A stretch of DNA of 64,000 nucleotides from a bacterium (lineage in GTDB: Bacteria; Zhuqueibacterota; Zhuqueibacteria; Residuimicrobiales; Krinioviventaceae): NCBI GenBank assembly GCA_963674595.2, contig CAXXFV010000009.1:32001-96000 (forward strand), written 5' to 3'. Within the stretch, counting starts at the first letter, position 1. Each line of letters begins with the position of its first letter. The position numbers and the translations under genes are program-made. This document shows, one piece after another, positions 34,128 to 40,937 of the stretch. The notes beneath the pieces were generated by a model. It did no database searches, was not told the origin of the DNA, and saw nothing but the letters and a program-made list of their open reading frames with translations.

Positions 34128-34297
34128 TTTTTTCAAGTTGATTAATTTTCGGAAAATTTGTTGTTATATAATCGATTTCGTAATTGAATAAAAATTTTTA
34201 ATTTTGCGTTATATTTGTATATAGGTGCTGTTTTTGAATCTTAAATATGATTTATGAATCTAATAAGAAAATAAAAATTTTACTCTGGAGATTTAAT

Positions 34298-34807
34298 ATG
34301 AAGTCCCGACTTTTTTACACGTTTTTGTTAATTGTTTTAGTACCTGTTCTGGCTGCTGCTGCCGGAAAGGGAACATGGCACAGTTTTGATGAAGGCATTA
34401 GTCTGGCCGCCAAACAAGACAAAACAATTCTAGTCGATTTTTATACAAATTGGTGCCACTGGTGCAAAGTTATGGATGAGAAAACTTTTCAAAACGAAAC
34501 TATTGCTAAAAAATTAAAAGATCGTTTTGTAACAGTTCGCCTGAATGCGGAAGATTCACAAAGTTATTCAAACTATCAGGGCGTCACTTATAGTAATGTT
34601 GAGTTAACCCGGGCTTTTGGAATTACCGGTTATCCTTCATTAGCTTTTCTGGATTCGAGCGGAAAACCAATAACTATTATCCCTGGTTTTGTACCACCGG
34701 AACAGTTTGTTGACATTTTGGATTATATCGATAAAAAATGTTATGCTAAAGATGTATCTTTTGAAGATTTTTTAAAAACAAAAGACTGTGGTGACAAGGC
34801 TGACTAG
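34298..34807 (+). CDS. Exported thioredoxin-fold protein (SoxW-like)
   Basis: WCHWC active site and cis-Pro GYP. GGAG RBS before the ATG at 34298 gives a signal peptide (track start 34247). Confidence 0.85.
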   Translation: MKSRLFYTFLLIVLVPVLAAAAGKGTWHSFDEGISLAAKQDKTILVDFYTNWCHWCKVMDEKTFQNETIAKKLKDRFVTVRLNAEDSQSYSNYQGVTYSNVELTRAFGITGYPSLAFLDSSGKPITIIPGFVPPEQFVDILDYIDKKCYAKDVSFEDFLKTKDCGDKAD

Positions 34808-39603: not shown

Positions 39604-39710
39604 AATTATTAAAAACATTACGTTTTGTTTTTTAAGTAAAAATTTTTATCTTTTATTCGAATGTTTTTAGTGATTCTCAAAAAATATTGATTGTGGGAGG
39701 ATATAGAATA

Positions 39711-40727
39711 ATGCTTCCAATTCTTTTAACTAAAAAGAATAAGCTGTTTTTTTCATGTTTAATATTTTGCCTTGTCGTTTTTCAATGCTTTTTAGTTTAT
39801 GCGGAAAATGCGCCTAAAATGATTATTGAAAATGACGACATTGATATTGGCTTTGTCAATCCCGGTGAGGATGCTGTTGCCGAATTTTTGGTTATTAATA
39901 AAGGTGATGCTGACCTGGTGTTGGATAAAGTAAAACCTACGTGAGGCTGCACAGTGGCCAAATATGATTCGGTCATCCCGCCTGGTCAGACGGGAAAAAT
40001 AATTGCAAAATTAAAAACAAAAACATATCGTGGAAAAGTTCGAAAAAGTATTCGTGTGGTTTCCAATGATCCAAAGGAGCCGTCCCGATTTTTATCGTTA
40101 AATTGTGTCATTCGTGGCATCAAAATGTTTCCATCGTCCCGTCTTTATTTTACCGTGTTTGAAGGACAACCGCAAGCCCGTGAAATAACATTGGCAACAG
40201 TAGGAGAGGATGAAATTAAGGTTAAAATTGACAAAGGTGATTTTGACGGAGAAATTTCGCTGGTTAAACTGGACCAACCAAAACCGGATGATGATAATGA
40301 TTATTGGAACCAATATAAAATGACCTTTACATTGCCTGTTGACGAAAAAGAGGGCCGTTTTAATGGTAAAATAAAATTAAGCACAAACAGTAAATATGAT
40401 CCTGAAACAGAACTTTATTATTTAGTAACAGTCAACTCTTCCATTAATATTAATCCTCAAAATTTGAACTTTGACGATAATAATATTCAGCATTCTGTTT
40501 TTGTAAATAATAAGTTCGGTGATGATCTGAAAATTTTGGATGTTAAAGTTGAGCCGAATGTTATTGCTGTAGAGATTGAACAATTGGAACCGGGCCTGCA
40601 ATATGTGTTAAAATGTAAAAAACAAAATGGTTCGGAGGACGCTCCTGTTAAAGGTAAAATTCAGATAAAAACAAACAATCATTTTCACTCTAAAATAGTC
40701 ATTCCATTTACAATTACCGGTTCGTAA
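39711..40727 (+). CDS. DUF1573-type secreted Ig-like protein with an in-frame UGA (probable selenocysteine, U-G-C-T motif)
   Basis: Track ORFs 39687..39944 and 39954..40727 share a frame. The junction reads KVKPT-TGA(39942-39944)-GGC-TGC-ACA-GTG, at the position of the family CGCT motif. GGGAGG RBS before the ATG at 39711. Confidence 0.85.
39955..39995 (+). promoter_or_regulatory. Candidate bacterial SECIS hairpin(s)
   Basis: TGGCC...GGTCA (39955-39975) and TCCCG-c-CT-GGTC-AG-a-CGGGA (39976-39995, G-initiated loop) lie just downstream of the UGA. Confidence 0.5.
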
Positions 40728-40747: not shown

Positions 40748-40937
40748 ATGAAGATAAAGCTGATGGTTTTGGCGCTTTTGTTTGCGGGAACATCACATGC
40801 CGGGGACAAATGGGTATGTAAAATTTTACCATCAGAACATAATGTTAGCTGAAACTCTGACAGACACAGCATGGAATATACTTGAAAAAAATGGCAATCC
40901 GGATGTTTGTATTGCCGGAATAATAAATGACTGGTAA
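40748..40937 (+). pseudogene. Possible gene remnant: signal peptide followed by a frameshifted short frame
   Basis: MKIKLMVLALLFAGTSHA is a good signal peptide, but that frame stops at 40852. Another frame reads YVKFYHQNIMLAETLTDTAWNILEKNGNPDVCIAGIINDW. Confidence 0.3.

Follow-up and report, generated by a model that had tools for sequence, protein, structure and literature searches.

The question raised by this locus, part of a 64,000-nucleotide stretch of bacterial DNA analysed here as a whole (the window), is whether an in-frame TGA at positions 39942-39944 ends a short gene or is read through as selenocysteine (Sec). The ORFs 39711..39944 and 39954..40727 on the forward strand share one frame and are separated only by TGA-GGC-TGC-ACA, exactly as the original prediction had noticed, with the first ORF starting at an ATG that lies 10 nt downstream of a Shine-Dalgarno-like GGGAGG (39695-39700) and the common frame ending at a TAA (40725-40727). 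Read through, the gene comprises 338 codons plus the TAA, and translation gives a product of 338 aa, ...DKVKPT-U-GCTVAKYDSVIPPGQTGKI..., the length that had been estimated. Gene callers divide it into pieces of 77 and 257 aa, and both are recorded as separate predicted proteins, P0014 (77 aa) and P0002 (257 aa, 98% identical). Taking together the Sec genes of the same genome, the exchange of TGA and cysteine in the homologous column, the retention of the TGA in diverged contigs and the synonymous conservation over the hairpins behind it, we assign a probability of about 0.9 to the reading that 39711-40727 is one Sec-decoded selenoprotein gene split by gene callers, in which the ribosome would read the UGA at 39942 as Sec with the SelA, SelB, SelD and tRNA-Sec of this genome.

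The predicted protein is continuous across the junction. The Pfam profile DUF1573 (PF07610) matched residues 39-126 (39825-40088), spanning the TGA, with 74.2 bits against a gathering cut-off of 26.1, and the stop falls on the first cysteine of the CGCT motif of this domain, as originally proposed. An AlphaFold2 model built from a 48-row alignment (mean pLDDT 93.3) contained a hydrophobic helix at residues 9-33 (39735-39809) followed by three beta-sandwich domains, namely the DUF1573 domain, a second at residues 136-242 (40116-40436) and a third at residues 245-335 (40443-40715), with the fold running through the TGA position. In this model U78-G-C80 forms a turn between strands 69-76 and 81-85 of the first domain, in which Cys80, encoded by the TGC at 39948-39950, is the partner of U78. 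The N-terminal helix is a possible signal peptide or membrane anchor with a possible cleavage site after VYA, such that the product would consist of a signal or anchor helix and three Ig-like beta-sandwich domains, the first carrying the U-G-C motif in a tight turn. Scans for promoters and terminators gave counts not above those of shuffles, and one RNA run contained 0.07 of the sampled words.

Aligning homologues, a check that the original prediction had suggested, gave nothing but cysteine or TGA at this position. A search of 40 relatives together with the window's own genome found full-length matches in two of the relatives (G001 and G011) at 38-39% identity, each with one TGA, and 31 of 167 genomes of the phylum contained a match at E ≤ 1e-8. 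At E ≤ 1e-60 there were five full-length places (the window itself in G000, G001, G011 and two in G118), each again with one TGA and, the window aside, 37-39% identical. Across 34 loci from the searches of relatives and phylum, seven carried TGA exactly at the first cysteine of CGCT and 27 carried a cysteine codon (22 TGC and 5 TGT), a count that omits a weak match in a 1374-aa frame (L025) and the place G161:C442, and that includes, as does the figure of 31 genomes, one Cys row (L033, genome G162) on which no conclusion rests. Among named genomes, searched with a five-sequence alignment as the query, 80 three-domain loci were found, 72 with CGCT in the column and eight with TGA; seven of the eight read UGCT and one read UGCS (L084), and four duplicated loci already counted. 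The distinct Sec loci thus number 11 with the window included, nine of the three-domain type and two shorter (L045 and L047), and these loci are only 28-39% identical. Every examined homologue without TGA in this column has cysteine there, and neither tryptophan nor glycine was ever seen. A homologue library search gave 11,991 matches at E ≤ 0.001, and seven representative clusters of homologues begin at query residue 82-84, directly past the TGA column, which is the pattern expected from truncated calls of Sec forms.

In 48 aligned three-domain proteins, with U written as C, the sole invariant columns were G47, N63, G65, L69, C78 (the TGA) and C80, so that the two chalcogen positions of the motif account for two of the six. 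A quick, unrooted maximum-likelihood tree of 81 rows, computed with the U column scored as a gap and flagged for long branches, contained a branch (SH-aLRT 96) that parts nine Sec rows from 72 Cys rows, the latter mostly from Acidobacteriota/Thermoanaerobaculia. One Sec/Cys change suffices on this tree, with no direction given because the tree is unrooted. No member of its clade has a longer terminal branch than the window protein, and the nearest named relatives carry the titles Calditrichota, candidate division KSB1 and, in one case, Actinomycetota. The clean separation of Sec and Cys clades and the invariance of the motif positions single out U-G-C as the functional core of this widespread domain, and a Cys variant or the Sec form of a DUF1573 protein would be a sensible choice for initial biochemical work.

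The search for selA, selB, selC and selD, likewise proposed at the outset, recovered all four from the same genome above curated cut-offs. SelA scored 485 bits in a profile search, the SelB wing domain was found within a 642-aa frame, and the tRNA-Sec gene, at 65.9 bits (gathering score 47), was called by ARAGORN as tRNA-SeC with anticodon tca. SelD, with 389 bits, has one in-frame TGA (...KCAGUAAK...) at what we take to be the known Sec/Cys site of this protein; its locus (L011; G000:C4:13190-14113, forward strand) is thus itself Sec-containing, and a long hairpin begins right behind its UGA. A peroxiredoxin gene (L135; G000:C4:224638-225033, reverse strand; AhpC/TSA, 127.9 bits) also has an in-frame TGA (...FTFVUATE...) and is probably another selenoprotein gene that callers would truncate, and the single molybdopterin oxidoreductase match in the genome is without an in-frame stop. 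The gene described here joins SelD and the peroxiredoxin in the selenoproteome seen in this genome. The original prediction had inferred Sec machinery in a poorly studied lineage; the machinery is present, but that part was less new than supposed, as passages of a survey of KSB1 (PMC9012183) already report selA, selB and selD in most clades. The same passages give selC as absent, against which stands the clear tRNA-Sec gene found here, KSB1 being the label of some of the closest named relatives.

SelB would be recruited through RNA structure in the roughly 50 nt just past the UGA, and two conserved hairpins lie there. RNAalifold applied to nine Sec-type sequences gave two adjacent hairpins at columns 13-18/30-35 and 36-42/47-53. 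Hairpin 1 (39954-39976; stem GUGGCC/GGUCAU) starts its stem 9 nt past the UGA, with five of its six pairs kept in all nine sequences and the remaining one in eight of nine; it showed no covariation among the nine sequences, its codons GTG and GTC are invariant at synonymous sites, and its 11-nt loop is without a fixed leading G. Hairpin 2 (39977-39994; arms CCCGCCU and AGACGGG) has an apical GGUC that begins 39 nt past the UGA, and its single covarying pair, 39-50, changes from G-C to U-A in three sequences (L059, L126 and L084) that form one clade, which means that this compensatory change may be one event. In a 12-pair version of both hairpins, with pair 13-35 omitted and pair 40-49 added, 89.8% of cells were paired, compared with at most 52.8% when the partners were slid, and the covariation score was matched by 16 of 500 shuffles. 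A strain variant in run X10, present in one contig at a depth of 2.6, carries C>T at 39981, which converts a C.A mismatch in hairpin 2 into a U-A pair and a proline into serine.

Conservation at the nucleotide level is also elevated in this region. Mean pairwise codon identity at invariant residues was 0.72 over the 15 such columns in the 20 codons past the UGA, compared with 0.40 over the 53 columns outside that stretch, a contrast in synonymous constraint with a Mann-Whitney p of 4.6e-4 from four orthologues, a value that overstates the case because the sequences are related. The downstream peptide VIPPGQTGK is itself conserved, which explains part of the nucleotide conservation past the UGA. 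The hairpins that the original prediction had seen behind the UGA held up as two conserved structures by RNAalifold, but the folding energy past the UGA was not better than that of shuffles (z 0.33 and z -0.55). Folding energy was discarded as a SECIS test, given that the 66-nt z-scores of seven Sec-type and 27 Cys-type loci overlap, and an Rfam scan of 39880-40080 at E ≤ 10 returned just a chance lncRNA match.

In the fdhF SECIS of E. coli, a stem-loop about 11 nt past the UGA presents an apical GGUC loop, of which G and U contact SelB. The window resembles it in having stem-loop structure immediately downstream of the UGA inside the coding region, with the same GGUC in hairpin 2 and a comparable spacing in hairpin 1; it differs in having two adjacent hairpins, of which the one with GGUC sits about 20 nt farther downstream than that of fdhF. 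The usual SECIS rules of spacing and loop are thus each followed by just one of the two hairpins, and a GGUC loop 39 nt from the UGA is farther away than is usual for classical bacterial SECIS elements. Hairpin 1 is a candidate SECIS by its spacing, which is like that of the candidate elements of the peroxiredoxin gene (stem from +16, AGUU loop at +20) and of L045, and hairpin 2 is a candidate for a second SECIS or an auxiliary stem. Conceivable, though less probable, is that Sec insertion here uses both hairpins as one SECIS, in which SelB would bind the GGUC loop at the unusual distance of 39 nt from the UGA.

Sec decoding has to be weighed against the readings in which the TGA is an error, is decoded as a standard amino acid or is a true stop. 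If the TGA were an artefact of sequencing or assembly in place of TGC or TGT, a one-base difference would suffice, and low-depth assemblies of metagenome-assembled genomes (MAGs) do contain errors, the depths here being 2.6-4.35. However, positions 39942-39944 are covered by contigs of four public runs from four studies, compared as contigs rather than as raw reads, and no other letter occurs there. Two of the four contigs match the window exactly, and its own source may be among them, while the remaining two show 20 and 31 differences over 1201 positions (2-3% divergence) and retain the TGA; the same column also holds TGA in 10 further distinct loci. The TGA is not an assembly error, a point that the original prediction had proposed to confirm in reads, and we regard the residual chance of an error as negligible. 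Decoding as a standard amino acid, by Trp or Gly recoding or near-cognate read-through, has in its favour that an open frame alone cannot separate Sec from another residue and that some uncultured lineages reassign TGA. This reading is nevertheless highly improbable, as TGA terminates seven of the 31 frames of at least 250 codons in the window and also ends two orthologues, indicating that it is not reassigned in this genome, while the aligned residue is cysteine in 72 of 80 and 27 of 34 homologues and never Trp or Gly, and a full Sec machinery accompanies SelD and peroxiredoxin genes whose Sec sites are TGA as well.

A true stop would make the locus either a pseudogene with a nonsense mutation or two genes, encoding a 77-aa exported peptide and a 257-aa protein started at the GTG at 39954, three codons past the TGA. 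The gene callers' treatment, with P0014 and P0002 as separate records, agrees with it, as does a downstream structure that is not energetically distinctive. We nonetheless consider it very unlikely, since a TGA replaces the same, always invariant cysteine in 11 loci as dissimilar as those described above and persists in strain variants that have diverged by 2-3%, and since both the DUF1573 match and the confident AlphaFold2 fold extend across the junction, whereas the second piece would be left without a signal peptide and without half of the first domain. In addition, no second DUF1573 gene was found in the genome, which leaves no Cys copy to take its place. The Cys/TGA column and the sel genes instead bear out the proposal of a selenoprotein split by callers, and reading 39711-40727 as a whole restores the genome's only DUF1573 protein, which public protein sets carry in pieces or truncated.

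The proposed Sec-decoded gene belongs to a family that has been known since 2007. OS_HP2 was first described as a selenoprotein family on the basis of two Sec sequences in the metagenome of Olavius symbionts (Zhang & Gladyshev 2007, PMC1976440, Table 2), a row of the 2008 GOS study lists OS_HP2 as pfam07610 with a UxC motif, 2 Sec sequences and 354 Cys homologues (PMC2398784), and entries in reviews give the family as PF07610, UGC (PMC9312934, PMC13188914). A DUF1573 gene also figures in an iron-stimulon table (PMC10434189), and the term DUF1573 appears in PMC10682907; the passages on DUF1573 in this literature contain no function and no experiment on the selenoprotein. Since the UxC/UGC family of DUF1573 proteins was already in the literature and in NCBIfam, the original prediction had set the novelty too high: the gene is a divergent new member of the DUF1573/OS_HP2 family, overlooked in annotation rather than novel in kind, and it leaves the knowledge of Sec decoding unchanged.

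U78-G79-C80 lies inside the PF07610 match, in line with the definition of OS_HP2 in the literature. Against the NCBIfam model NF041425 (OS_HP2 family (seleno)protein, of type subfamily_domain), the window protein scored 92.2 bits with C written for U, below the cut-off of 100, which is passed by its clade-mates L084 (123.5), L059 (102.3) and P0010 (101.6) and missed by P0009 (88.3), P0011 (86.1), L056 (89.3) and L126 (94.2). By these scores the window protein may best be described as a divergent relative just outside the trusted range of NF041425. It shares with OS_HP2 the Pfam domain, Sec as the first residue of U-G-C and Cys homologues in that column, and it falls inside a Sec clade that contains members passing NF041425; it differs in that the closest named relatives of its genome are KSB1/Calditrichota, while the original sequences came from deltaproteobacterial symbionts and ocean samples, a comparison that does not extend to architecture. 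The Cys forms of Acidobacteriota (Thermoanaerobaculia; for example P0004 and L057-L131) likewise have an N-terminal helix, DUF1573 and two more beta-sandwich domains, are about 330-380 aa long and 24-31% identical over nearly the full length, and match the motif context P-[TS]-C-G-C-T-V-A-x-[FY]-D. In contrast to the window protein, they have Cys for Sec, lie on the opposite side of the tree split and in many cases have a divergent upstream Mur-ligase gene that is absent at the Sec loci.

What the U-G-C motif does can be approached from motif, fold and neighbourhood. No PDB entry was found by sequence under E 0.04, and a Foldseek search against the PDB matched only chains of a generic type (tandem Ig, ASH-like, ciliary central-apparatus, titin and cadherin) at TM 0.2-0.34, giving no functional lead. 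The window gene is flanked by a heparinase II/III-like gene and a methyltransferase gene, and no gene partner conserved across the Sec loci was found in a neighbour scan that covered 44 of 83 listed neighbour ORFs; elsewhere the neighbours encode proteins with T9SS tails, URO-D-like, Gfo/Idh/MocA and thioredoxin-like proteins. Because the neighbourhood is not conserved and the fold matches are generic, it is the motif that carries any functional reading. In redox proteins, related motifs of the C-x-C / C-G-C and G-C-U-G type occur in the C-G-C shuttle of Erv2, in CGC peptides that mimic PDI and in the C-terminal GCUG of thioredoxin reductase. Two chalcogen residues one position apart in a turn could, as in those systems, form a strained and readily exchanging (selenenyl)sulfide, a likeness that we take as a mechanistic lead and not as membership, given that the window protein is an unrelated Ig-like beta-sandwich without a flavin or thioredoxin domain in the same chain. 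A further parallel, between U-G-C and the active-site motif of SelD, was dropped, as SelD here reads CAGUAAK.

With both positions invariant, a motif class known from the literature, two thioredoxin-like neighbours and one fusion to cytochrome c, we tentatively suggest that U-G-C outside the cytoplasm might serve as a redox or ligand-binding centre, cycling between selenol/thiol and selenenylsulfide or binding a soft metal or chalcogen, although the odds are somewhat against it. More doubtful is the idea that the U-G-C turn on an Ig-like domain could be the active centre of a new class of extracytoplasmic redox proteins, selenol/thiol relays of non-thioredoxin fold that would pass electrons to or from c-type cytochromes or periplasmic thioredoxin-like proteins; it is suggested by L045/L047, where the domain is fused to cytochrome c, and by L059/L126, which adjoin TPR-AhpC/TSA genes. 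In two of the nine Sec-clade loci (L059 and L126), the next gene directly downstream encodes a protein with TPR and an AhpC/TSA thioredoxin-like domain. In the window, a thioredoxin-like protein of 186 aa (Thioredoxin_2/7, DsbH-like) is encoded on the forward strand at 34247-34807, about 5 kb upstream, and is a possible redox partner, though not adjacent.

The same phylum holds another Sec-type subfamily of DUF1573 proteins, about 253 aa long, at L045:1195-1953 and L047:1159-2016 (both on the reverse strand; genomes G048 and G049). Its proteins have a signal peptide, a DUF1573 domain with ...RGS-U-GCTAALL... and a C-terminal cytochrome c domain (PF00034) with two CxxCH motifs, and their genes form a neat hairpin with an AGUU loop 15 nt past the UGA.

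Other features of the neighbourhoods were particular to single genomes or lineages. Two paralogous Sec-type loci of one MAG titled candidate division KSB1 (L054 and L055) each adjoin a URO-D-like gene (PF01208), which precedes one locus and follows the other, and a protein of about 550 aa with a T9SS sorting tail is encoded downstream of both L053 and L054. At the Cys-form Thermoanaerobaculia loci L058-L131, the neighbour scan covered 15 loci and showed a divergent upstream Mur-ligase gene at 12 of them, an association that is lineage synteny. Right after the selenoprotein gene of the window itself, a short forward-strand ORF at 40748-40850, noticed by eye, opens with a signal-peptide-like start (MKIKLMVLALLFAGTSHA...) and ends at a TGA.
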